64,000 nucleotides of DNA from an uncultured Candidatus Saccharibacteria bacterium. GTDB lineage: Bacteria > Patescibacteriota > UBA1384 > XYA2-FULL-43-10 > 1-14-0-10-43-13. The DNA lies in the NCBI GenBank assembly GCA_964543385.1, contig CAZIYE010000002.1, positions 34 to 64,033 on the forward strand, in the 5' to 3' direction. Shown one piece after another: positions 4,233 to 41,808 of this stretch. Position 1 is the stretch's first letter, and each line of letters starts with the position of its first letter. The notes below the pieces were generated by a model. That model was not told where the DNA came from, did not search any database, and worked only from the letters and a program-made list of their open reading frames with translations. The position numbers were made by a program, and so were the translations under genes.

Positions 4233-5180
4233 TTAGGTACGGACATTTTGCACTTTTAGCCTGAGGACTTGATTCGGTGTTTTGCCGTTCAGTCCGCAGT
4301 GTTTTAAATCATTGTAATACATATTCCAAAGCTTTGCTTGGTATTTTAATTCCTCCTCTGTTTTGTATCTAATCTTCTCATAAAAACTCTCCTGATCAGA
4401 TCGATGACTTCTCTCAACGCAACCGTTTTGAGCTGGTTTGCCTGGGTCAATCAAGTAATGAGCGATATCTAATCTCTCGCACTCAATATCTAGCGGATGA
4501 AGGTTTGGGTTAAATGGATCTTTGCTCTTAAGATAGCCGGTGTATCTGTTTGTGAAGATGCTGCCATTGTCAGTCTTAATTGCTTTAATCCGGTACGGAA
4601 ACCTTTGAATTACCTCGTTTAGGAAGTTCAGAGCATCAACATTGGCTTGCTGGTCATAGATCTTTAGGTAGCGCCATCTGGAGGCGCAGTCTATGGCAGT
4701 GAACTGGTAATACCTCTTCTCGTTGATCTTATCTGGCACGTATTTGACATCGATCTCAATTAGTTCACCGGGCAGGAGTAGTGTCTTTGGCTTCTGTGGA
4801 TACTGCTTCCTTGTGCGGTATTTCCGAGTCAGGCCGTCTGTCTTTAGGATCTTGCCAATAGTTCTCTCGTGGAGAAAGATGCCTTCGTCCGCCAGATCCC
4901 ACTTGATCTTTAGAGCACACTCGTCGTTCATCTCGTGGCGCAGCTCCAGCACCCGTTCTTTGATTCTGATTGGCGTTTCGTTGGGCTGAGACCTTGGTCT
5001 GGTTGAGTGGTTTTCAAGGCCGGCCAATCCATCCTCTCGGTATTGTTTTAACCAATACTTAATGGCTCTTTCTGAGAAAGGACAGACCAAGGCAAGGTCT
5101 TTAATCTTCATCCTTTTTTCCAAGACAGGAGTAATCCATCTTAGTTTTTCTTCTTGTGTCGAATTGGGCATTATCTTCAT
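4233..5180 (-). CDS. IS481-family DDE transposase (HTH + integrase-core/rve domain)
   Basis: N-terminal HTH and HSTRPRSQP motif typical of IS481; DDE core with IKTDNGSIF ... NGCVERSHRS. Confidence 0.85.
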   Translation of the reverse strand: MKIMPNSTQEEKLRWITPVLEKRMKIKDLALVCPFSERAIKYWLKQYREDGLAGLENHSTRPRSQPNETPIRIKERVLELRHEMNDECALKIKWDLADEGIFLHERTIGKILKTDGLTRKYRTRKQYPQKPKTLLLPGELIEIDVKYVPDKINEKRYYQFTAIDCASRWRYLKIYDQQANVDALNFLNEVIQRFPYRIKAIKTDNGSIFTNRYTGYLKSKDPFNPNLHPLDIECERLDIAHYLIDPGKPAQNGCVERSHRSDQESFYEKIRYKTEEELKYQAKLWNMYYNDLKHCGLNGKTPNQVLRLKVQNVRT

Positions 5181-5220
5181 GCTCCAAGTTAACCAAAAAG
5201 TGCAAAAAGTGTGTACACAT
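4235..5220 (-). mobile_element. IS481-family insertion sequence (~980 bp) with imperfect ~21-bp terminal inverted repeats
   Basis: IRL GTACGGACATTTTGCACTTTT (4238-4257) against the reverse complement of IRR AAAAGTGCAAAAAGTGTGTAC (5196-5216). A single transposase ORF fills the element. No clear target-site duplication. Confidence 0.8.
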
Positions 5221-5232
5221 TACCATATTTAC

Positions 5233-5262
5233 TTGAAGAAATAGCGGCCACTATTGTATAAT
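5233..5262 (+). promoter_or_regulatory. putative sigma-70 promoter (TTGAAG - 18 nt - TGtTATAAT, extended -10) for the large surface-protein gene
   Basis: Hexamers read directly; located 16 nt outside the IS right end and 34 nt upstream of the ATG. Confidence 0.4.
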
Positions 5263-30527: not shown

Positions 30528-31214
30528 ATGGTCAATGGAGAAATGAAGCAAAATTTCAAATATATAGATGTAATCACCGTAATATTTGTCGCAGTATTAT
30601 TGATATCTAATATCGCCTCGACAAAAATCACCCAGATCGGTGGTTTTTCTCTTGATGGCGGTACAATACTTTTTCCTCTAGCCTATATTTTTAACGATAT
30701 CTTGACCGAGGTTTATGGATATAGGCAATCAAGGAAGGTTATTTGGTTAGGTTTTGCTAGCGCTATTTTGATGTCCATAACCCTTGGTTTGGTCGGATTT
30801 TTGCCCTCCGCGAATGGCTGGGAGAACCAAGATGCTTATCAAAAAATTCTTGGTCAGGCGCCAAGAATAGTTATCGCAAGCCTTTGTGCTTATCTAGTGG
30901 GAGAGTTCTCAAATTCTTTTATCCTTGCAAAAATGAAAATTGCCTCCAAGGGAAAATGGCTCTGGATGAGAACTGTAGGATCAACATTAGTAGGTGAGCT
31001 ATTAGACAGTCTGATCTTTATCGTCATTGCTTTTTCTGGCGTTTTGCCAAAAGAACTAATAATCGCTCTGATCGTCTCAAACTATGTATTTAAAACGGCT
31101 ATCGAGATAATTTTCACTCCGATAACTTATGTTATAGTTAACTTCTTGAAGAAGGCAGAGGGCCAAGATTACTATGACAAAAAGACAAATTTTAATCCAT
31201 TTGCTTTAAAATAG
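30528..31214 (+). CDS. yhhQ: queuosine-precursor transporter (YhhQ/DUF165, VUT family)
   Basis: NIASTKITQIGGFSLDGGTILFPLAYIFNDILTEVYGY matches the YhhQ signature; 6 TM helices. Confidence 0.75.
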   Translation: MVNGEMKQNFKYIDVITVIFVAVLLISNIASTKITQIGGFSLDGGTILFPLAYIFNDILTEVYGYRQSRKVIWLGFASAILMSITLGLVGFLPSANGWENQDAYQKILGQAPRIVIASLCAYLVGEFSNSFILAKMKIASKGKWLWMRTVGSTLVGELLDSLIFIVIAFSGVLPKELIIALIVSNYVFKTAIEIIFTPITYVIVNFLKKAEGQDYYDKKTNFNPFALK

Positions 31215-32347: not shown

Positions 32348-32735
32348 TGGTGGAGGCGGTCGGAGTTGCACCGGCGTCCAAAAGGTCAAAAACATACATT
32401 CTACAAGTTTAGACACGATTAAATTTTTCAGACTAAGCTTAAATCGTGACCAAAAAACTTTTGTCCTGCCTCAAGAAATCTTAATCGAGCACGCTTGAGA
32501 ACCGTACACGCAGCATCCCGATGTATAACACCCGTGATCCATCGTCGAGACGCAATGGGCGGATGCAGTCGCTATTAAGCAGCAACTGGAGCGAAAGCAA
32601 AGCCAGCAAAAGCTGTCTTTACGCGCTCAACAAGTGATTTTGCACTTGAGTTTTTTGTATGCACTTTGAAGCGGCAATACTTACTTACTTGCAATATGTT
32701 TTTAAAGTACCTTCTGTCGAAGCTAATACGCCCCC
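32348..32735 (-). ncRNA. ssrA: tmRNA (SsrA), ~388 nt; predicted tag peptide (A)KSLVERVKTAFAGFAFAPVAA
   Basis: On the minus strand: 5' GGGGGCGUAUUAGCUUCGACAGAAGG (compare E. coli GGGGCUGAUUCUGGAUUCGACGGG); 3' GGACGCCGGUGCAACUCCGACCGCCUCCACCA (compare E. coli GGACGCGGGUUCAACUCCCGCCAGCUCCACCA). Acceptor stem has the G3.U70 alanine-identity pair. Internal frame from resume codon GCA to GCU GCU UAA; region is GC-richer than its surroundings. Confidence 0.85.
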
Positions 32736-33742: not shown

Positions 33743-34492
33743 ATGGAAGAAAAAGATTTACCAATCGAAAACAGGCTTAAGGACTTGCGAAAAGAAAAGC
33801 ACCTTAGTCAAGAGGAATTAGCCGATGCAATCGGTATTTCTCGTCAGTCAATAATCTCACTTGAACAAGGCAGATCAATGCCTTCTGTTCCGTTGGCGAT
33901 TTCCCTATGTCGGTATTTTGATGCCGCATTTGAAGAACTTTTCGACTTCGAGCGCGAAGTTGATAGAGAAATCAACAATGCAATTCACAATGGTAGTATT
34001 AATATAAAAGTAATTAATGATCCAGAAGTCGGATCGAGAAAGGACAATGCTATGGTAGAATTAGAGCCATGGAGACCTTTTAGAGAAACAGTATCCTTGA
34101 GAGACGCAATGGATCGGCTTTTAGAGGATAGTTTTATTACTCCTGCCAAAATGGGGGGTATGCCTCGAATTGATGTCAAAGATAAGAAAGACTCAATTGT
34201 AGTTAAAGCCGAGTTGCCAGGAATCAAGGAAGAGGACATCAATGTCGAAATCCTCGATAATGTCATGACAATCTCAGGTGAGAAAAAAGAGGAAAAAGAA
34301 GAGAAAGAAGAGGACAAAGGCTATTATTACAAAGAAAGCCATACTGGAAAATTCTCTCGAAGTTTCACCCTGCCATCTGAAGTAATGACCGAAAGGGCCG
34401 TTGCTGATATGAAAAATGGTATTCTCACAATCACTGTTCCAAAAATAGAGCCAAAGAAAGCTCAAAAGATAAGCATCGCCCCAAAGAGATAA
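33743..34492 (+). CDS. XRE-family HTH domain fused to a complete Hsp20/alpha-crystallin small heat-shock protein
   Basis: Residues ~8-65 LRKEKHLSQEELADAIGISRQSIISLEQGRSMPSVPLAISLCRYFD (HTH_3). Then WRPFRE ... PRIDVKDKKDSIVVKAELPGIKEEDINVEILDNVMTISGEKKEE ... GKFSRSFTLP ... GILTITVPK (alpha-crystallin domain) in one uninterrupted frame. Confidence 0.75.
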   Translation: MEEKDLPIENRLKDLRKEKHLSQEELADAIGISRQSIISLEQGRSMPSVPLAISLCRYFDAAFEELFDFEREVDREINNAIHNGSINIKVINDPEVGSRKDNAMVELEPWRPFRETVSLRDAMDRLLEDSFITPAKMGGMPRIDVKDKKDSIVVKAELPGIKEEDINVEILDNVMTISGEKKEEKEEKEEDKGYYYKESHTGKFSRSFTLPSEVMTERAVADMKNGILTITVPKIEPKKAQKISIAPKR

Positions 34493-34563: not shown

Positions 34564-35190
34564 TTATGAAAGAAAATCTTTGCCACTCCAATCATCCATA
34601 AATTCTCTTAGATATTTTGCGATAATCTCATGTCTCCTATCTGCAATTATTCTAGCAGTTTTAGTATTCATCATATCTCTTAAGAGCAAAAGTTTTTCAT
34701 GAAAGTGGTTTATACTTGATCCATTTTCTTCCTGAGATTCTTCAGGGTCGAAAATTGGTCTATTTATCTGTGCGCCGTAAGCAAATGTTCTGGCAATACC
34801 AATAGCACCTAGTGCATCGAGTCGATCTGCATCTTGGACGATTTGTGCCTCTAGTGTCTCTGGTTTTATAGCATGCCTTTTATCCTTGAAGCTCACTGTT
34901 AAAATTACATCAATAATTCTATCAATCTTTTCTTGGCCAATCCCTAGAGTGTCCAACCATTTCCGCGTCTTGGATCTCTCTTTCTCATCTTCTACACTTG
35001 AGAACTTGTGATCATCAATATCATGAAGCAGAGCAGCCATCTCTACAATAAAAGCATCGGCTTTTTCCTTTTCGCAAATATATTGTGCAGCTTTCCAAAC
35101 CCTCTGAGTATGCCACCAATCATGACCAGAAATGTCATCCTTGAAAAAATCTTTTACAAAATCAATTGTTTTCTCTATTTCTTTATTCAT
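34564..35190 (-). CDS. HD-domain metal-dependent phosphohydrolase
   Basis: HTQRV ... LLHDIDD HD motif; 208 aa. Confidence 0.8.
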   Translation of the reverse strand: MNKEIEKTIDFVKDFFKDDISGHDWWHTQRVWKAAQYICEKEKADAFIVEMAALLHDIDDHKFSSVEDEKERSKTRKWLDTLGIGQEKIDRIIDVILTVSFKDKRHAIKPETLEAQIVQDADRLDALGAIGIARTFAYGAQINRPIFDPEESQEENGSSINHFHEKLLLLRDMMNTKTARIIADRRHEIIAKYLREFMDDWSGKDFLS

Positions 35191-35538: not shown

Positions 35539-35979
35539 ATGAAGATCAAAGCAAAAAAATTAAATAAAGATGCCATTGTTCCTGTCCATTTATTACATGG
35601 TGACGCAGGGTTGGACTTACATTCCGTAATAGATGTAACTTTAAACTCAGGAGAGAGGCTTGCAGTGCCTACAGGGCTAGCATTTGAGCTGCCGGAGGGC
35701 TATGTATCATTGATCTGGGATAAGAGCGGATTAGCTCTGCGAAATGGTATAAAAACGATGGGCGGGGTGATAGAATATACTTATCGGGGTGAATATAAAA
35801 TAATATTGCTAAACACGACCAATACGCCGTTTCATATTAAAAAGGGTGATAAAATCGCCCAGATGCTGGTGCAGCCAATAATGTCAGTTGATGTTGAAGA
35901 AGTCGAAGAATTAAGCGAGACAGAGCGCGGACTACATGGATTTGGCTCTGCTGATGAGAAGCTAAAGAATGGAAAATAA
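35539..35979 (+). CDS. dut: dUTP diphosphatase (canonical trimeric dUTPase)
   Basis: GLDL, PTGLAFELPEGY, motif III GGVIEYTYRGEYKIILLNT, C-terminal GFGS motif V. Confidence 0.85.
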   Translation: MKIKAKKLNKDAIVPVHLLHGDAGLDLHSVIDVTLNSGERLAVPTGLAFELPEGYVSLIWDKSGLALRNGIKTMGGVIEYTYRGEYKIILLNTTNTPFHIKKGDKIAQMLVQPIMSVDVEEVEELSETERGLHGFGSADEKLKNGK

Positions 35980-36652
35980 AACCGGAAAATTCATTGTCAT
36001 AGATGGTTCTGACGGGTCAGGTAAAAAGACCCAGTCTGATTTATTGATTGAAAGCTTGAAAAAAGCAGGGCATGAGACCGCTTATTATGATTTTCCTGAT
36101 TATGATTCATTCTTTGGTAAGATGGTAGGCCGATACCTCAATGGAGAATTCGGCGAAGCAGATCAGGTCAGCCCCTATCTTGGCTCACTTTTATATGCAG
36201 GGGATCGCTGGCAAGCAAGTAAACAAATAGAAAAAGATCTTTCAGAAGGCAAAATTGTCATTTCAAACCGATACACGCAGTCAAATATGGGCCATCAGGC
36301 TGCAAAAATAGACAATATTGATGAAAAAGAAAAGTATTTGAAATGGCTTGAAGAGCTAGAGTTTAATATTTATAAAATACCAAAACCAGACTTAGTTTTA
36401 TTTTTACATGTCCCAGTAGAGATAAGTCAGAATCTGTTTGTCGGAAAGGGAAAGCGCAAATATACAAAGGCAGTCAAAGATATCCACGAAGGGAATGTCG
36501 ATTTTATGAAGAGGTCGGTCAATGAATATCTCCGTTTAACAGAAAAATATCCAGAGTGGCGAAGAATTGATTGTACAGAGGCAGAAACCCTACTGTCAAA
36601 GGAAGAGATTGCTGATAGAATTTATTCGATGATAACGAAAGAAGTTTTATGA
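35969..36652 (+). CDS. tmk: thymidylate (dTMP) kinase
   Basis: FIVIDGSDGSGKKTQ P-loop, DRW/lid region; 227 aa. Confidence 0.85.
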   Translation: MENKTGKFIVIDGSDGSGKKTQSDLLIESLKKAGHETAYYDFPDYDSFFGKMVGRYLNGEFGEADQVSPYLGSLLYAGDRWQASKQIEKDLSEGKIVISNRYTQSNMGHQAAKIDNIDEKEKYLKWLEELEFNIYKIPKPDLVLFLHVPVEISQNLFVGKGKRKYTKAVKDIHEGNVDFMKRSVNEYLRLTEKYPEWRRIDCTEAETLLSKEEIADRIYSMITKEVL

Positions 36653-36797: not shown

Positions 36798-38039
36798 ATG
36801 AATTTGAAAGATCAAGACAAAGAAATATTTGAAGTAATCAATTGTGAAAAAGAGCGCCAAGTCGAAGGTTTAGAGATGATTGCTTCTGAAAATTATGTCT
36901 CAGAAGCTGTCCTCGAAGCAACTGGTTCAATCCTCACTAACAAGTATGCTGAGGGCTATCCATACTCTAGATATTATGGTGGCTGTGAGTGCGTTGACAA
37001 AGGAGAGTCATTAGCAATTGAGCGATTAAAGAAATTATTTGGCTGCAAATTTGCCAATGTTCAGCCACACTGTGGATCAAGTGCAAATATGGCAGCTTAT
37101 GCTGCTATCCTTGCGCCAGGTGATAAATTGCTCGGACAAAGTTTAGATGCTGGAGGACATTTGACTCATGGAGCCAAAGTTTCTTTTTCTGGGAAATGGT
37201 TTGAGTCATACAGCTATGGACTTGATTCAGAAACTGGACAGTTAAATTATGAAGAGATCAGAAAAATTGCACTTGAAGTAAGGCCAAAAGTTATTATGTG
37301 TGGGTACTCAGCATATCCAAGAAAAATAGATTTCAAGAAATTTAGAGAGATTGCTGACGAAGTAGACGCATATTTGATTGCAGATATAGCCCACATAGCC
37401 GGATTAGTTGCTACTGGCTATCATGATTCTCCTATTGGTATCGCTGATATAGTTACATCAACAACTCATAAAACTCTAAGAGGTCCACGTTCCGGCATCA
37501 TTATGACAAATAATGAAGAATTGGCAAAGAAGATTGACAAAGCGGTTTTCCCGATGCTTCAGGGTGGTCCACTCGAGCATGTTATTGCCGCTAAGGCAGT
37601 TGCATTTGGCGAAGCGCTAAAACCTGAATTTAAGATATATATAAGCAATGTTTTAGATAATATGCAGACTTTTGCCAAGACTTTAATGTCTTTTGATTTT
37701 GACTTGGTCACTGGCGGGACAGAGAATCATCTAATATTAGTCGATCTTAGAAGCAAGAGCATAACCGGTAAGGAATTCGAGTATGCTCTACACGAAGCAG
37801 GGATTACAGTAAATAAAAATGCTATTCCCAATGACCCAAATCCGCCAAAAGTTACTTCCGGCATCAGAGTTGGGACAGCCGCATTAACAACCCGCGGAAT
37901 GGGTGTTAAAGAAATGCAGCGGATTGCTGAAATGTTTAATATCGTTGCTGAAAATATCAGCGATGAGCAAAAACTTGCCGAAATCAAACAAGAGATTAAA
38001 GAAATGACCGAAAATTTCCCAGTACCGGGCATTAAATAA
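36798..38039 (+). CDS. glyA: serine hydroxymethyltransferase
   Basis: EMIASENYVS, PLP-lysine region TSTTHKTLRGPRSG; 413 aa. Confidence 0.9.
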   Translation: MNLKDQDKEIFEVINCEKERQVEGLEMIASENYVSEAVLEATGSILTNKYAEGYPYSRYYGGCECVDKGESLAIERLKKLFGCKFANVQPHCGSSANMAAYAAILAPGDKLLGQSLDAGGHLTHGAKVSFSGKWFESYSYGLDSETGQLNYEEIRKIALEVRPKVIMCGYSAYPRKIDFKKFREIADEVDAYLIADIAHIAGLVATGYHDSPIGIADIVTSTTHKTLRGPRSGIIMTNNEELAKKIDKAVFPMLQGGPLEHVIAAKAVAFGEALKPEFKIYISNVLDNMQTFAKTLMSFDFDLVTGGTENHLILVDLRSKSITGKEFEYALHEAGITVNKNAIPNDPNPPKVTSGIRVGTAALTTRGMGVKEMQRIAEMFNIVAENISDEQKLAEIKQEIKEMTENFPVPGIK

Positions 38040-38048
38040 GGATTAGCG

Positions 38049-38357
38049 ATGGATTTTTCAGAATTACAAGAAAAAATTATTGCCAATGCAGAGCGATATT
38101 CAAAAAAACATGATATTTTAATTAATGATGATTATGCAATTCATAAATTATATGAAGAAGTTGGCGAGTTTTCTCAAGCCTGGCTTATTCACAATCGCCA
38201 ATGCAGAGAATCGAAATATGTTGAAAAAGAGATGTCCAAGAAGATGATCTCGCACGAATTGGCTGATATAATCGGAATTGCGGTAGTGATAGCAAATTTG
38301 CAGAAAATAAACTTAGAAAAAGCAATTGACCAAAAATGGATTAATAGAGAAAAATAA
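38049..38357 (+). CDS. MazG-like single-domain nucleoside-triphosphate pyrophosphohydrolase
   Basis: LYEEVGEFSQAW ... ELADIIGIAVVIANL EExxE/ELAD motifs of the all-alpha NTP-PPase fold; 102 aa. Confidence 0.6.
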   Translation: MDFSELQEKIIANAERYSKKHDILINDDYAIHKLYEEVGEFSQAWLIHNRQCRESKYVEKEMSKKMISHELADIIGIAVVIANLQKINLEKAIDQKWINREK

Positions 38358-38358
38358 T

Positions 38359-38913
38359 ATGATATTAGGAGTAACTGGAACAATTGGCGCTGGCAAAGAT
38401 TTGATTGCAAGATATCTGGAAAGTAAAGATTTTCAGCATATTTCTACTGCCGATATCCTTAGAGAAGAAGTCTCTCAAAAAGGCTTATCCTTAGAACGTG
38501 AATCATTACGCACTTTTTCAAACGATTTAAAGAAAGAAAAAGGTGGCGATTATCTAGCAAGGGAGGCTGTTGCTAGAATGAAAAGTGATAATATTATAAT
38601 ATCCGCAATAAGAGCAGTAGAAGAAGTCGATTACCTAAAAAAACTAGATAATTTTTATCTTATTTTTATTGATGCTCCTGTTGAATTACGATATGAAAGA
38701 ATCAGAAAAAGATCACGGATAGGCGAGAAGGAAATAGCCTTTGAAGAGTTTAAAAGAAAAGAAGACTTAGAAATGTTTGGCCAAAGCTCACAAAGACTAG
38801 ATTATTGCAGGGAGAAGGCCGATTTCATAATTAGTAATACTAGCTCCATAGATCAATTAAATATAGAAATTGACAATCTGCTAATCAAGATTAGGGAAAG
38901 TGGAAATAAATGA
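38359..38913 (+). CDS. P-loop (deoxy)nucleoside-monophosphate kinase-like protein with GxxxxGKD Walker A (T4 gp1 dNMP-kinase-like / CoaE-like fold)
   Basis: MILGVTGTIGAGKDLIARYL. The GKD (not GKS/T) P-loop is shared with T4 gene-1 dNMP kinase (GVKRSGKDTTADFI). 184 aa. Start moved to ATG 38359 after the mazG-like stop. Confidence 0.5.
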   Translation: MILGVTGTIGAGKDLIARYLESKDFQHISTADILREEVSQKGLSLERESLRTFSNDLKKEKGGDYLAREAVARMKSDNIIISAIRAVEEVDYLKKLDNFYLIFIDAPVELRYERIRKRSRIGEKEIAFEEFKRKEDLEMFGQSSQRLDYCREKADFIISNTSSIDQLNIEIDNLLIKIRESGNK

Positions 38914-39740
38914 CACAGTTTGATCATGTATACCAAGATGCAATAGCCAGAGTTCTGAATGAAGGAGTGGAAGATTTTAATGTTCGTACTGGCATGAAAG
39001 TAAAGGCAGTGCCGGGACTTACTTTTCAGTGTGATTTTGGTTTTCCGATATTAACATTACGCAAAATCCCCATAAAACTATTTATAGCTGAGATGGTTTG
39101 GTTTCTTTCTGGTAGCAAGGATCCAGATGATTTCTTAAGTAAATATACGAAAATATGGGATGATTTCCGAGAAGAAGATGGTACTATTGCTGCGGCTTAT
39201 GGTCATCGCTGGAGACACCATTTCGGGCGTGATCAGATAAAAGACTTAATTTCCCTTCTCCAGAATGAGCCATCTTCGCGCCACGGTGTGGTCGTAACAT
39301 GGGATCCGGCAGACGACGGTCTTGGCAGCGGCACGAAAAAGAAAAACGTACCTTGTCCATACACATTTACCGTAAATATTATCGGTGATAGACTTCATTT
39401 GCATTCAATAGTTCGCTCAAATGATATGATGCTTGGCTGCCCTCACGATACAGCCGGCTTCTCATTGCTCCAATATTTATTAGCAGCAAAACTTGGCGTA
39501 AGACCAGGCGTTTATACACATTCAGTAAGCAATGCTCATATATATGAAAATCATTATGACCAGGCATGGGAGATCGTGAATAGAGAAAATTCTCACCCCC
39601 CAATCGTTTTTGAGCCCAGGCCAGATTATCTAGATAGAGCAATGGCAGGGGACGAAAGCGTAATAAATGAAATTTACGAAACATTAACAGAACAATACAA
39701 ACCTAGATCAGCAGTTAAAAAAATGAAGATAGCATTATGA
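38910..39740 (+). CDS. ThyA-family pyrimidine-nucleotide C5 (hydroxy)methyltransferase; cytosine-type active site (Asp at the uracil-specifying Asn position); predicted dCMP methylase or hydroxymethylase rather than canonical thymidylate synthase
   Basis: Aligns by eye to E. coli ThyA: R21 (VRTGMKV), E58 (IAEMVWFL), Y94 (AAAYGHRWR), C146 (NVPCPYTF; His147 replaced by Pro), R166-S167-(N)-D169 (VRSND), H207/Y209 (NAHIY). The GLPFNIASY block reads GCPHDTAGF, so E. coli N177 is Asp, as in T4 gp42 (RSND...FGFRND). Confidence 0.7.
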   Translation: MTQFDHVYQDAIARVLNEGVEDFNVRTGMKVKAVPGLTFQCDFGFPILTLRKIPIKLFIAEMVWFLSGSKDPDDFLSKYTKIWDDFREEDGTIAAAYGHRWRHHFGRDQIKDLISLLQNEPSSRHGVVVTWDPADDGLGSGTKKKNVPCPYTFTVNIIGDRLHLHSIVRSNDMMLGCPHDTAGFSLLQYLLAAKLGVRPGVYTHSVSNAHIYENHYDQAWEIVNRENSHPPIVFEPRPDYLDRAMAGDESVINEIYETLTEQYKPRSAVKKMKIAL

Positions 39741-40264
39741 AAACAATAATAATCATGGCTCAGTCACTTGATGGTGTGATAGCTTATGACGCTGACCACG
39801 CCGCGAACTGGACATCGAAAGAAGATAAGCAGTTTTTTATATCTGAAACCAAGAAAGCCGGAGTAATAATTTTTGGCAGAAATACCTATAAAACTTTTGG
39901 CGACAAACCTTTGCAAGGCAGACTAAACCTTGTGATGACCCTGGATGAAAGTGAAAAGCAATTTGAAAAGCCAGGTCTTGTTGAATATGCGGTTAAAAAA
40001 GAGCCATCGGAAATATTAAAAATGTTAAAAAAGAGAGGCTTTAAAAAAGTTTTTGTCGGCGGAGGAAGTATGATTAATTCACTTTTCCTTGATAAGGGGT
40101 TAATCGATGAACTTTGGATAACCATTGAGCCAAAAATTTTTGGAAAAGGATTAAAAATACTCACTGATCAAAAAAGAGATATTAATCTTGTTTTGAAAAC
40201 AGTTAAAAAAGCAAACCAATCAGTTTTATTAAAGTACGGAGTGAATTATGGGAATTCTAACTAG
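39737..40264 (+). CDS. folA: dihydrofolate reductase
   Basis: IIIMAQSLDGVIA ... IFGRNTYKTFGDKPLQGRLNLVMT ... VFVGGGSMINSLFL parallel E. coli FolA blocks ([37 protein letters not shown]). Confidence 0.75.
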   Translation: MKTIIIMAQSLDGVIAYDADHAANWTSKEDKQFFISETKKAGVIIFGRNTYKTFGDKPLQGRLNLVMTLDESEKQFEKPGLVEYAVKKEPSEILKMLKKRGFKKVFVGGGSMINSLFLDKGLIDELWITIEPKIFGKGLKILTDQKRDINLVLKTVKKANQSVLLKYGVNYGNSN

Positions 40265-40964
40265 AAAAGAAATTTTGACTGCTATTGCTGATGGGGAGCT
40301 TAGTTTTGAGCCAGGCTTAGACCAATTTCAGCTACAACCAGCTGCAATCGACGTTCGGGTTGGTATGAACTTTTTCATACCAAAAATTTGGTCATTTGGA
40401 GAAGAGGGAAGAACGGGCTTGAATACTGATCATCTTGATAACGAAAAAAAGAATGAGTTTTTAGATAGTCTACATTTAAAACATGGGCAGACCTTTGAAT
40501 TGCTCCCAGGGGAATTTATCTTAATTTCGACTCTAGAAAAGATTTCTATGAAGTCAGGCAGACTTGTCTCTATCCTTTATCCTAGGAGTTCCACGACCAG
40601 AAGAGGTATATCTATTGAATCTGGCGTTATAGATCCTCATTACGAAGGCTCTCTTATGATCCCTGTTTTTAATATGACTAGAACGCAAAAAATCAAGATA
40701 TATCCCGGTGAAAGAATTGCCCAGCTTGTTTTTTCTACTACCGAGAGTGTTCTTTCTAAGGAAGAGTCCTTGAATCATGGACTTGCAAAACCTAAATATC
40801 AGGGAGTCCAAGGCTATCAGTTGGATTATAAGTTCGATCCGCATGATGAAATCAATTTAGTCAAAAATGGCCAATTGGATAAATTAAAAAAGAATCACCT
40901 AATTTCATTAGACGAAAGGGTTGAAAGTGGCGACGAAAAAAATCAACTACCCTTATCTGCCTAA
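40248..40964 (+). CDS. dCTP-deaminase/dUTPase-superfamily protein (Dcd-like jelly-roll); catalytic Glu of true dCTP deaminases apparently absent, so possibly a dCTP/dUTP pyrophosphatase
   Basis: AIDVRVG ... LPGEFILISTLE ... YPRSSTTRRG ... IDPHYEGSLMIPVFNMT ... IYPGERIAQLVF. Dcd S111/R115 conserved, but the VLEF Glu (E. coli E138) aligns to Pro/Val. Confidence 0.6.
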   Translation: MGILTRKEILTAIADGELSFEPGLDQFQLQPAAIDVRVGMNFFIPKIWSFGEEGRTGLNTDHLDNEKKNEFLDSLHLKHGQTFELLPGEFILISTLEKISMKSGRLVSILYPRSSTTRRGISIESGVIDPHYEGSLMIPVFNMTRTQKIKIYPGERIAQLVFSTTESVLSKEESLNHGLAKPKYQGVQGYQLDYKFDPHDEINLVKNGQLDKLKKNHLISLDERVESGDEKNQLPLSA

Positions 40965-41808
40965 AGGTAGAGAAATCAAGTTTGTCGGTTCTGAAAATGA
41001 ATATATATTAGCGGCTAAAGAGGCTGCTATGAAGGCTGGCTGCAGAAAACAGCCAACAGGAGCAGTCTTGGTCAAAGACGGCAAAATAATAATGACGGCT
41101 ACCAATGCAAGTACTACGGTCAGCGTCTGCCCCAGAGTATTAAAAGGAAGCAAGACTGGAACCGACTATCATTTTTGCAAGGAAGTTTGTAATCAAGACG
41201 GGCACTCTGAATATAGCGCAGTACAAAAATGTCTAGAGAAGGGGATAGACATAAAAGACGCTGATATTTATCTCTGGGGACATTGGTGGTGCTGCAAACC
41301 ATGTTGGGACAAGATGATCGAAGGAGAAATCAAAAATGTTTATCTGGAGAAAAATGCAGATGAAAAATTCATGTTTTCCGCAACTATCGGCAAAATCTAT
41401 ATTTCAGGTGCTCTCACCATACAGCCAAAGGGTAAAAATTTAAGAAAATCATATGAAAATTTAGCAGCAGTTTGCTCAAACTTTTGTAGCAATGTTTATG
41501 TGCCACATCTTAATAGCACGGATCCGATCAAGGATCCCAATGAAGTGCCGTCTATTGTTTGGAAAACTGATCACAGGGAAGTAGCTTCTTCTGATATCGT
41601 AGTCGCATATGTTGGCGCACCATCTCTAGGGACTGGCGCAGAGCTTGAGATCGCCAGAATGGCGGCTTCAGATATAGTAGTTTGGTGGTATAAAGGTGAA
41701 ATGGTTAGTAGAATGTGTCTTGGAAATCCAAATGTTAAATATAAGTTGGAAGTTATCAATGACCAAGATTTAGCCCATCAGCTTAAGTTAGTCCTAAGGA
41801 ATTATTAG
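40921..41808 (+). CDS. fusion: dCMP/cytidine-deaminase zinc-binding domain + nucleoside 2-deoxyribosyltransferase-like (NDT/Rcl/MilB-family) domain
   Basis: N-terminal HSEYSAVQKC ... WWCCKPCWDKM (H-x-E ... PC-x-x-C deaminase zinc site). C-terminal IYISGAL ... IVVAYVGAPSLGTGAELEIARMAASDIVVWW resembles the NDT-family D-x-G-T-x-x-E motif. TTG start at 40921 overlaps the dcd-like gene; true start uncertain. Confidence 0.65.
   Translation: MKVATKKINYPYLPKGREIKFVGSENEYILAAKEAAMKAGCRKQPTGAVLVKDGKIIMTATNASTTVSVCPRVLKGSKTGTDYHFCKEVCNQDGHSEYSAVQKCLEKGIDIKDADIYLWGHWWCCKPCWDKMIEGEIKNVYLEKNADEKFMFSATIGKIYISGALTIQPKGKNLRKSYENLAAVCSNFCSNVYVPHLNSTDPIKDPNEVPSIVWKTDHREVASSDIVVAYVGAPSLGTGAELEIARMAASDIVVWWYKGEMVSRMCLGNPNVKYKLEVINDQDLAHQLKLVLRNY

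Follow-up and report, generated by a model that had tools for sequence, protein, structure and literature searches.

The window analysed here, a stretch of 64,000 nucleotides from an uncultured Candidatus Saccharibacteria bacterium (contig CAZIYE010000002.1), carries in a string of thymidylate genes a gene (40927..41808, + strand) coding for a two-domain protein, in which a zinc deaminase of the dCMP-deaminase family is fused to a domain of the nucleoside 2'-deoxyribosyltransferase (NDT) superfamily that resembles DNPH1. It was found that three genes of such clusters switch together: the thymidylate synthase (TS) homolog ThyA changes from Asn to Asp, the dCTP deaminase-like (Dcd-like) protein loses its deaminase Glu, and a dCMP-family deaminase appears. 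The fusion could be a bifunctional enzyme of the thymidylate cluster, whose deaminase ends a methylate-first route to dTMP and whose DNPH1-like half removes uracil-type 2'-deoxynucleoside 5'-monophosphates (dNMPs), a proposal drawn from sequence comparison to which we give an even chance of being right. Both domains come from known superfamilies. The two-domain architecture itself is new to the literature that was searched, where no paper describing a deaminase joined to an NDT-like domain was found; the sequence-only reading that preceded this analysis had likewise known of no described example.

The switch was seen in about 140 related loci, with flanks of up to 9 kb, in which the genes were typed; 80 of them were seeded with a deaminase motif and 63 with the NDT-like domain. 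The motif, [YW]GHWWCC, matched 314 species in a scan of one genome per GTDB species, all the listed ones being metagenome-assembled genomes (MAGs) of the Candidate Phyla Radiation (CPR) type, and the deaminase-seeded loci are the best 80 of these 314 species matches. ThyA lies within 9 kb in 68 of the 80, and Asp stands at the position of E. coli N177 in every one of the 65 ThyA sequences that were readable, the other three having failed the pattern match. Among the NDT-seeded loci a deaminase, either fused or adjacent, accompanies all ten Asp-type ThyA genes and none of the 11 synthases of the other types (nine Asn-type ThyA and two ThyX; Fisher exact p about 3e-6, or about 4e-5 when near-duplicates are removed, with phylogenetic kinship ignored). 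All 61 long Dcd-like proteins in the Asp-ThyA loci are without the catalytic Glu (Pro in 58, Ser in 3); of the eight in Asn-ThyA or ThyX loci, five keep Glu and three show a dUTPase motif of the Gly type. The sequence-only reading had supposed that the deaminase acts on 5-substituted dCMP supplied by an Asp-type ThyA. The co-variation of deaminase, Asp-ThyA and Glu-less Dcd-like protein gives this strong comparative support, while the substrate itself, dCMP or 5-substituted dCMP at the monophosphate level, is suggested by the family and the context. It was also observed that the Asp-ThyA of the window and of 65 related loci (L007-L086) bears Pro at the H147 position and an inserted 'DGLGSGxKKKNVPC' loop, and that its identity stays at 55-66% even where the neighbouring deaminase is down to 35-40%.

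In the window the ThyA homolog (38910..39740, +) has Asp at the position of E. coli N177, in 'LGCPHDTAGF', so that its earlier description as Asp-type holds; it has Pro at the position of H147 and is predicted to be a dCMP methyltransferase. The substitution N229D/N177D is known to make a dCMP methylase out of TS (Liu and Santi 1992, cited in bioRxiv 10.1101/2024.12.05.627091), and Asp at the N177 position marks all characterised TS homologs that act on cytosine nucleotides (bioRxiv 10.1101/2024.12.05.627091; PMC5175136). The Dcd-like protein (238 aa; 40248..40964, +) passes the dCTP-deaminase models (TIGR02274), so an annotation would read 'dCTP deaminase'. When it is aligned with the M. tuberculosis and E. 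coli enzymes, Pro (in 'GSLMIPVFN') stands where these have their catalytic Glu, E129 and E138 respectively, and a dUTPase-like IDxxY motif is present. It is likely that this protein is a dCTP (or dUTP) pyrophosphatase which is mis-annotated across CPR genomes, and here it is predicted to convert dCTP to dCMP and not to deaminate; the pyrophosphatase role is assumed from the dUTPase-superfamily fold. As a dUTPase it would not be needed, because a canonical dUTPase is already in the operon.

A route in which methylation comes before deamination is favoured here because it is the simplest pathway that needs all three gene changes; its substrates and the order of its steps are what we infer from them. 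The first step would be the cleavage of dCTP, yielding dCMP, and would fall to the Glu-less Dcd-like protein, the MazG-like pyrophosphatase or both. The Asp-type ThyA would then methylate dCMP to 5-methyl-dCMP, with dihydrofolate reductase (DHFR) and serine hydroxymethyltransferase (SHMT) recycling the folate, the GHWWCC deaminase (the N-domain of the fusion) would deaminate 5-methyl-dCMP to dTMP, and thymidylate kinase (Tmk) would carry dTMP to dTDP. In canonical clusters, by contrast, Dcd deaminates first and methylation comes second. The DHFR gene is translationally coupled to Asp-ThyA, its start overlapping the ThyA stop (ATGA); this points to the production of dihydrofolate and thus favours methylation over hydroxymethylation.

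A comparable route is known from phages. In phage metaviromes genes of the dCMP-deaminase family adjoin Asp-type TS homologs and PRA-PH-like genes. Of seven such TS homologs, five produced 5-methyl-dCMP (5mdCMP), and the deaminases turn 5-methylcytosine (5mC) nucleotides into T nucleotides; the study covered viral data only (bioRxiv 10.1101/2024.12.05.627091). A cellular 5-methyl-dCMP route to dTMP was looked for in the literature and no report of one was found. In the phage 5-methyl-dC route (Xanthomonas phage XP12; MetaGPA 'mSCD'), as in the window, the Asp-type TS homolog has in cis with it an enzyme of the dCMP-deaminase family and a pyrophosphatase of the MazG/PRA-PH kind, and the proposed flow is likewise from dCMP through a 5mdC nucleotide to a dT nucleotide. 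The phage route differs in belonging to viruses with 5mC-substituted DNA and in that its best-studied deaminase prefers triphosphates and single-stranded DNA (bioRxiv 10.1101/2024.12.05.627091), whereas the window cluster lies on a cellular chromosome with DHFR, SHMT and Tmk as neighbours; the phage work mentions no NDT-like fusion.

The deaminase half (40942..41376, +; residues ~8-152) matches Pfam dCMP_cyt_deam_1 (PF00383) over residues 26-142 with 42.2 bits, above the curated cut-off of 25, which bears out the zinc-dependent dCMP-type deaminase of the sequence-only reading. Its closest solved relative in sequence is the dCMP deaminase of S. mutans (2hvv, 9e-5). An AlphaFold2 model of the fusion, built on a 28-sequence alignment, has a mean pLDDT of 87.5 and a pTM of 0.72 and is confident over the linker as well; in Foldseek the model matched the dCMP deaminases T4 Cd (1vq2), S. 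mutans 2hvv and the cyanophage S-TIM5 enzyme (4p9e), all at E of about 1e-5. The match to the ComEB equivalog of NCBI reached 33 bits, and because this is far under the cut-off of 219 the half is regarded as a divergent subfamily, called here 'GHWWCC'. H95-S-E97 (41203..41211, +) provides the zinc-ligand His and the catalytic Glu. The family-specific motif G120-H-W-W-C-C-K-P-C128 (41278..41304, +) contains the CxxC zinc ligands C125 and C128 within CCKPC (41290-41304, +; residues 124-128). In the 28-sequence alignment H95, E97, G120, H121, W122, W123, C124, C125 and C128 are invariant, and so is the triplet C70-P-R72. The Pro that usually stands ahead of the first zinc Cys is replaced in the GHWWCC subfamily by Cys124.

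The second half (41392..41805, +; residues 158-295) had been described as an NDT/Rcl/MilB-type domain. The domain search supports the NDT superfamily; the MilB type did not stand, the nearest relative being DNPH1/Rcl. With the sequence of this one protein alone Pfam Nuc_deoxyrib_tr (PF05014) gave 20.8-23.0 bits against a cut-off of 28.8, over profile positions 1-100 of 117. The same model was matched by 19 of 20 homologous C-domains (best 1.5e-9), and several relatives already bear a precomputed PF05014 assignment. When a profile of the C-domain was compared with the PDB, DNPH1/Rcl was found at 2e-8, BcmB at 1.4e-5, an NDT at 1e-3 and MilB at 8e-3, and hhalign of the C-domain against human DNPH1 gave a probability of 96.6% (E = 5e-10, 111 columns). 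The model of the fusion fits on DNPH1 with a target-normalised TM of 0.75-0.81 and on MilB (4jem/4ohb) with a TM of 0.71-0.73.

Most of the catalytic residues of DNPH1 have a counterpart in this half. Y160 (41398..41400, +), a member of the catalytic triad, is invariant and equals DNPH1 Y24 and Y7 of L. leichmannii NDT. D217 (41569..41571, +), the general acid, equals DNPH1 D80 and NDT D72 and is mostly Asp, with Asn in several members. In P234-S-L-G-T-G-A-E241 (41620..41643, +) S235 equals DNPH1 S98 and E241 equals DNPH1 E104, both being invariant, and in V262-S263-R264-M (41704..41715, +) S263 equals DNPH1 S128, a phosphate ligand from the partner subunit; S263 and R264 are nearly invariant among the relatives. 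The Tyr/Asp/Glu triad and the serines of the 5'-phosphate pocket (S235, S263) are all present. It has been reported for DNPH1 that the covalent deoxyribose-phosphate ester is formed on E104, that the leaving base takes its proton from D80, that S98 and S128' bind the phosphate, that deoxyribose is associated with Y24, at whose position the ribose-using MilB has Phe, that H56 touches O2 of the uracil ring in 5-hydroxymethyl-dUMP (hmdUMP) where MilB has Glu for cytosine, and that Glu55 activates the water which releases the covalent intermediate, E55A/Q being 150-fold slower (PMC10603095).

Two features which define DNPH1 fail in the C-half, and because of this it was not filed as a DNPH1 ortholog. 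In place of the LTEHV motif it has Y193-V-P195-H196 (41497..41508, +), where H196 corresponds to DNPH1 H56 and is kept in most members, and the invariant P195 takes the position of DNPH1 E55; in place of the GSIRGG loop with Arg30 it has SGALT(I/N), with Thr at the Arg30 position. YVPH aligns with Y40-V-P42-L ('YVPL') of the NDT from L. leichmannii; the hhalign match as a whole is weak (E 0.0016, probability 16%). D92 and N123 of that NDT, which bind the free 5'-OH, are both Ser in the C-domain. A nucleoside-level NDT (PDT/NDT class I/II) was ruled out since S235 and S263 replace the Asp/Asn that bind the 5'-OH, and a MilB-type CMP hydrolase was ruled out since Tyr160 and His196 stand where MilB has Phe and Glu. 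The residues suggest that a phosphate pocket of the dNMP type is paired here with a Pro of the transferase type. As the triad and the phosphate ligands are conserved, the C-domain is read as an enzyme that would be active on 2'-deoxynucleoside 5'-monophosphates through an ester on Glu241; Tyr160 points to a preference for deoxyribose, and a pyrimidine of the uracil type would agree with His196.

According to the proposal, the C-domain would bind a 2'-deoxynucleoside 5'-monophosphate and break its N-glycosidic bond by way of a covalent deoxyribose-5-phosphate ester on Glu241. In this manner uracil-type nucleotides which Asp-ThyA could not use would be removed as base and deoxyribose 5-phosphate. 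A candidate substrate is dUMP, coming from the dUTPase of the operon or from deamination of unmethylated dCMP; hmdUMP, arising from hm-dCMP, is another possible one. Alternatively, the sugar phosphate may be handed to another base. Such nucleotide clean-up is our best guess at the reason for fusion to the deaminase.

The fusion is not peculiar to the window but conserved among the ultra-small bacteria of the CPR (Patescibacteria). The architecture occurs in about 44 clusters at 90% identity, with at least 88% query coverage, lengths of 261-321 aa and identities down to 35%. The assemblies behind them are independent ones from NCBI, ENA, JGI and Logan, and where a source is named it is Moranbacteria, Uhrbacteria, Portnoybacteria or 'Patescibacteria group'. 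At least nine representatives in a library clustered at 50% identity span both domains, and the fusion was present in about 22 of the 80 deaminase-seeded loci. Database labels read 'deaminase', 'deoxycytidylate deaminase', 'hypothetical protein' and once '2'-deoxynucleoside 5'-phosphate N-hydrolase'. The sequence-only reading had left room for two objections, that a domain search might not back the NDT-like domain and that a frameshift in sequencing or assembly might have joined two separate genes. The search backs the domain, and the chance of an artefactual junction is negligible: split versions do exist in some genomes, but the same continuous architecture recurs in the clusters from all four sources and at distances down to 35% identity, in the 50% representatives and in about 20 GTDB species genomes, and the linker of the model is confident. 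A frameshift or assembly artefact was therefore rejected.

Split and larger forms are found as well. Among the deaminase-seeded loci a separate NDT-like gene stands directly after a single-domain deaminase in three (L074, L077, L084), and in a fourth (L056) about 2 kb separate it from the deaminase and its neighbour is the Dcd-like gene; adjacent pairs were also seen in L089, L096 and L121, the NDT-like gene of L089 being right behind a 162-aa deaminase. Free-standing orthologs of the C-domain reach 68% identity to the C-half of the window protein. Triple fusions join DHFR, deaminase and NDT-like domain (P0144) or Dcd-like, deaminase and NDT-like domain (P0147), and there are a DHFR-deaminase fusion (P0258) and NDT-like fusions with a DCD-like domain (L143, P0257). 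Because fused, split and larger fused forms all occur, both halves appear to share one functional neighbourhood with repeated fusion and fission. The NDT-like half is considered accessory, because most GHWWCC deaminases are without it. Some distant members have other partners: in L143 (4863-6176) and P0257 the NDT-like domain shares a chain with a DCD-like barrel whose C-terminus carries a membrane segment, and in L149 (174-1979) with a Ser/Thr protein kinase and a helix-turn-helix domain. These distant fusions may be different conflict or regulatory systems in high-GC organisms.

Several points weigh against the proposal. A simple shift of deamination from dCTP to the monophosphate dCMP would account just as well for the link between the deaminase and the Glu-less Dcd, and it is the Asp switch of ThyA alone that tells a methylate-first order from one through dUMP. 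The operon itself contains a canonical dUTPase, a source of dUMP. There is phylogenetic kinship among the loci, their sampling relied on two biased seeds, and a second TS or deaminase may lie elsewhere in these genomes, beyond the flanks of up to 9 kb that were covered. One of the loci is an exception, L133, with Asp-ThyA and a Pro-type Dcd-like protein and no GHWWCC deaminase within 8 kb. As for the C-domain, the NDT-like protein is also present in canonical clusters where dUMP is wanted and its destruction would be wasteful; the invariant Pro in place of DNPH1 Glu55 speaks against efficient hydrolysis; and dTMP, itself a uracil-type dNMP, would have to be excluded from its substrates. It may be added on L133 (7453-10927) that it comes from a 183-kb contig with a class II-like ribonucleotide reductase, is not CPR-like in appearance, and also carries a small Dcd-like gene, a free NDT-like gene and a second, divergent TS-like paralog of 342 aa. 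The link with the Glu-less Dcd and the dUTPase in the operon would suit an N-domain that is an ordinary dCMP deaminase making dUMP in place of the lost Dcd activity, with Asp-ThyA still using dUMP and the C-domain acting as a generic dNMP hydrolase. The membership of the deaminase half in the dCMP deaminase family is in keeping with this, and DHFR, SHMT and Tmk are the usual partners of a dUMP-using TS. We nevertheless think it unlikely, as it leaves the strict change from Asn to Asp in ThyA (65 of 65 readable sequences, and ten against none in the NDT-seeded loci) without a reason; Asp at the N177 position is an experimentally established determinant of cytosine specificity, and H147 of ThyA is changed too, to Pro. 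In the opposite direction, the cluster could be a cellular counterpart of the XP12 pathway, in which 5-methyl-dCTP would be incorporated and much or all of the genomic cytosine would become 5-methylcytosine, while the fusion would set the ratio of 5mC to T and destroy unmodified or uracil nucleotides; this is highly improbable in our judgement.

For the C-domain, hydrolase and transferase have to be weighed, and hydrolysis in the proposal above is a best guess. Pro in place of Glu55 suggests slow hydrolysis and possibly base exchange as in DmtZ, an NDT-family dAMP hydrolase of Z-genome phages reported in 2026 as the first natural deoxyribose-5-phosphate transferase (PMC12884076). The C-domain might accordingly move the sugar phosphate from a dNMP to a free pyrimidine base, feeding or bypassing the thymidylate pathway, for example from thymine to dTMP, or from dUMP and cytosine to dCMP and uracil. 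This is compatible with either role of the N-domain, and we hold it to be a real possibility, though a somewhat doubtful one. The invariant Pro195 of YVPH aligns with NDT P42 and replaces DNPH1 E55, and DmtZ, which has a phosphate pocket and a transferase-type Pro, does both reactions and is fused to a dUTPase-family enzyme in phage Wayne, just as fusions of NDT-like and DCD-like domains (L143, P0257) occur in the family of the C-domain. The C-domain is found with all three TS types, which fits a TS-independent salvage of dTMP at least as well as a hydrolase. Against this, the Pro equivalence is a three-residue motif within the weak hhalign match given above, DmtZ Pro57Ala left transfer unchanged (PMC12884076), the other characterised natural members of the superfamily at the NMP/dNMP level are all hydrolases, and the specificity for an acceptor base is not readable from sequence. 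That the C-domain is instead a non-catalytic module for nucleotide binding or oligomerisation, such as a dTMP/dNMP sensor replacing the dCTP/dTTP allosteric site, is very unlikely. It is dispensable for deamination, with about 22 fused and four split cases among the best 80 of 314 species matches, and DNPH1-type domains form dimers; but little or no variation is seen at the nucleophile Glu, at the Tyr or at either phosphate serine, whether the form is fused, split or free-standing, and free-standing orthologs occur without any deaminase.

The free-standing orthologs also bear on how specific the C-domain could be. Unfused NDT-like proteins are present in Asn-ThyA or ThyX clusters without a deaminase, and they show no active-site residue differences from the fused form. 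A role specific to the Asp-ThyA pathway was rejected, the active sites of the orthologs adjoining Asn-ThyA and ThyX being near-identical; a generic role, as dNMP hydrolase or deoxyribose-5-phosphate transferase, is what the sequences favour. Their neighbours are HD-domain, kinase, Tmk, dUTPase, adenosine deaminase and S-adenosylhomocysteine (SAH) hydrolase genes; DeoC or other catabolic genes were looked for beside the free-standing NDT-like genes and were not found.

Known systems resemble the fusion in part. Human cells have the same two families in DCTD and DNPH1, as separate enzymes acting in sequence, and the order of their reactions, deamination of 5-substituted dCMP followed by cleavage of a uracil-type dNMP, matches the N-to-C order of the fusion. 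The triad of Tyr, Asp and Glu, the two serines that bind the phosphate and the O2-contacting His are common to DNPH1 and the C-domain (PMC10603095). Unlike the human pair, the fusion is one polypeptide inside a thymidylate operon, where the main job of the deaminase is likely to be biosynthetic (dTMP) and not sanitising. DmtZ, compared here by its description, is like the C-domain an NDT-superfamily protein and works at the dNMP level predicted for the latter; it has a Tyr/Asn(Asp)/Glu triad, small uncharged residues in the phosphate pocket and the transferase-type Pro to which Pro195 may correspond, and it too is fused to or adjoins another nucleotide-pool enzyme. Its partner in phage Wayne is DutZ, of the dUTPase family (PMC12884076), instead of a deaminase, its base is a purine (adenine/2-aminoadenine) and its context is a phage. 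MilA and MilB (BcmB, BlsM) likewise bring together a cytosine-specific ThyA homolog and an NDT-superfamily NMP glycosidase of the same fold. They are a CMP hydroxymethylase and a CMP/hmCMP N-glycosidase of nucleoside-antibiotic pathways, whereas the window has no antibiotic gene cluster; and the NDT-like protein here, unlike MilB, also accompanies Asn-ThyA and ThyX. The dNTP set of phage T4 consists of gp56 dCTPase/dUTPase, gp42 dCMP hydroxymethylase, gp1 dNMP kinase, the dCMP deaminase Cd and the DHFR Frd. The same families stand side by side in the window, where the predicted pyrophosphatase belongs to the dUTPase superfamily, the TS homolog is Asp-type, and a dNMP kinase, a dCMP deaminase and DHFR are also present. 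In T4 dTMP comes from a separate Td of the Asn type, and the product of Cd is dUMP; no enzyme of the T4 set is known to carry a fused NDT-like domain.

The frame of the fusion gene is a single unbroken one at 40921-41808 (+), with 295 codons counted from TTG 40921, and both domains lie in it as the sequence-only reading had them. The motifs quoted there were also located where it had placed them, with HSE at residues 95-97, CCKPC at 124-128 and IVVAYVGAPSLGTGAELEIARMA at 226-248 (41596-41664, +), the last including PSLGTGAELE at residues 234-243. GTG 40927 is the likelier start and gives 293 aa; it is preferred because a better-spaced Shine-Dalgarno-like AAAGGG stands 7 nt upstream and the database protein has this length, the identical entry (P0001, 293 aa) being recorded from four contigs. 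The gene begins within the 3' end of the Dcd-like gene upstream, the overlap being 38-44 nt.

On the + strand the cluster reads dUTPase, Tmk, SHMT, MazG/PRA-PH-like, dNMP-kinase-like, ThyA, DHFR, Dcd-like and fusion, and then thrS. A canonical short dUTPase (35539..35979, +) stands at the head of the string and is followed by Tmk (35969..36652, +), by SHMT (36798..38039, +), assigned by sequence and by matches in related loci and supplying methylene-tetrahydrofolate, by a small MazG/PRA-PH-like NTP pyrophosphohydrolase (38049..38357, +), by a dNMP-kinase-like P-loop kinase (38326..38913, +; phrog_139 match) and, after ThyA, by a dihydrofolate reductase of the DHFR/RibD_C type (39737..40264, +). 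A phage or prophage origin of the window was rejected, as nine tRNAs, a tmRNA and thrS are present. A search of 2.9 million viral contigs did not turn up the GHWWCC deaminase motif, and 50,697 phage genomes gave weak, partial matches to the deaminase half only. These phage matches are open reading frames of about 105 aa with 28-34% identity in Xanthomonas, Stenotrophomonas and Streptomyces phages, for instance at 701-1018 in Xanthomonas phage Langgrundblatt2 (L150) and at 5001-5255 in phage Pfeifenkraut (L151), the latter on the strand opposite annotated small frames; the contexts of both Xanthomonas phages, which were opened, are uninformative.

Other features were noted around these clusters. 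A gene for an HD-domain protein, possibly a 5'-deoxynucleotidase or dNTPase, adjoins them repeatedly (34564-35190, -, in the window; L001:11755-12390, L087:8141-8719, L110:6923-7921), and the HD domain is fused once to the deaminase (P0238); a deaminase-HAD hydrolase fusion (P0209) is also in the representative library. Tmk-dUTPase fusions of about 400 aa are recurrent (L001:10518-11693, L010, L011, L029, L034, L036, L097, L100). The window further contains an HTH_3-Hsp20 fusion protein (33743-34492, +), a Vut_1 'putative vitamin uptake transporter' (30528-31214, +), possibly relevant to folate supply, and the tmRNA gene (32348-32735, -). Many MAGs with a cluster of the CPR type are titled 'uncultured Gammaproteobacteria bacterium' or 'Candidatus Saccharibacteria', names that look like placeholders (L011, L015, L018, L019, L023, L025, L030 and others, all TPA-assembled).

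Thymidylate synthesis is among the most conserved steps in the making of DNA precursors, and the methylate-first order has so far been described only for phages with 5mC DNA. If the proposal is true, a large bacterial group would make thymidylate without a dUMP intermediate, by methylating dCMP and then deaminating it. The co-varying three-gene switch, which on the comparative evidence points to thymidylate synthesis independent of dUMP in a major radiation of bacteria, would be more surprising than the fusion itself. The fusion would join in one chain the activities of DCTD and then DNPH1 that human cells use on modified cytosine nucleotides. Its C-domain, a bacterial relative of DNPH1 with a transferase-type Pro, is a candidate for the second natural deoxyribose-5-phosphate transferase, which could be useful for enzymatic nucleotide synthesis. 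The Asp-type ThyA homologs, the 'dCTP deaminases' and the 'dCMP deaminases' of hundreds of CPR genomes would, if the route is confirmed, have to be re-annotated.

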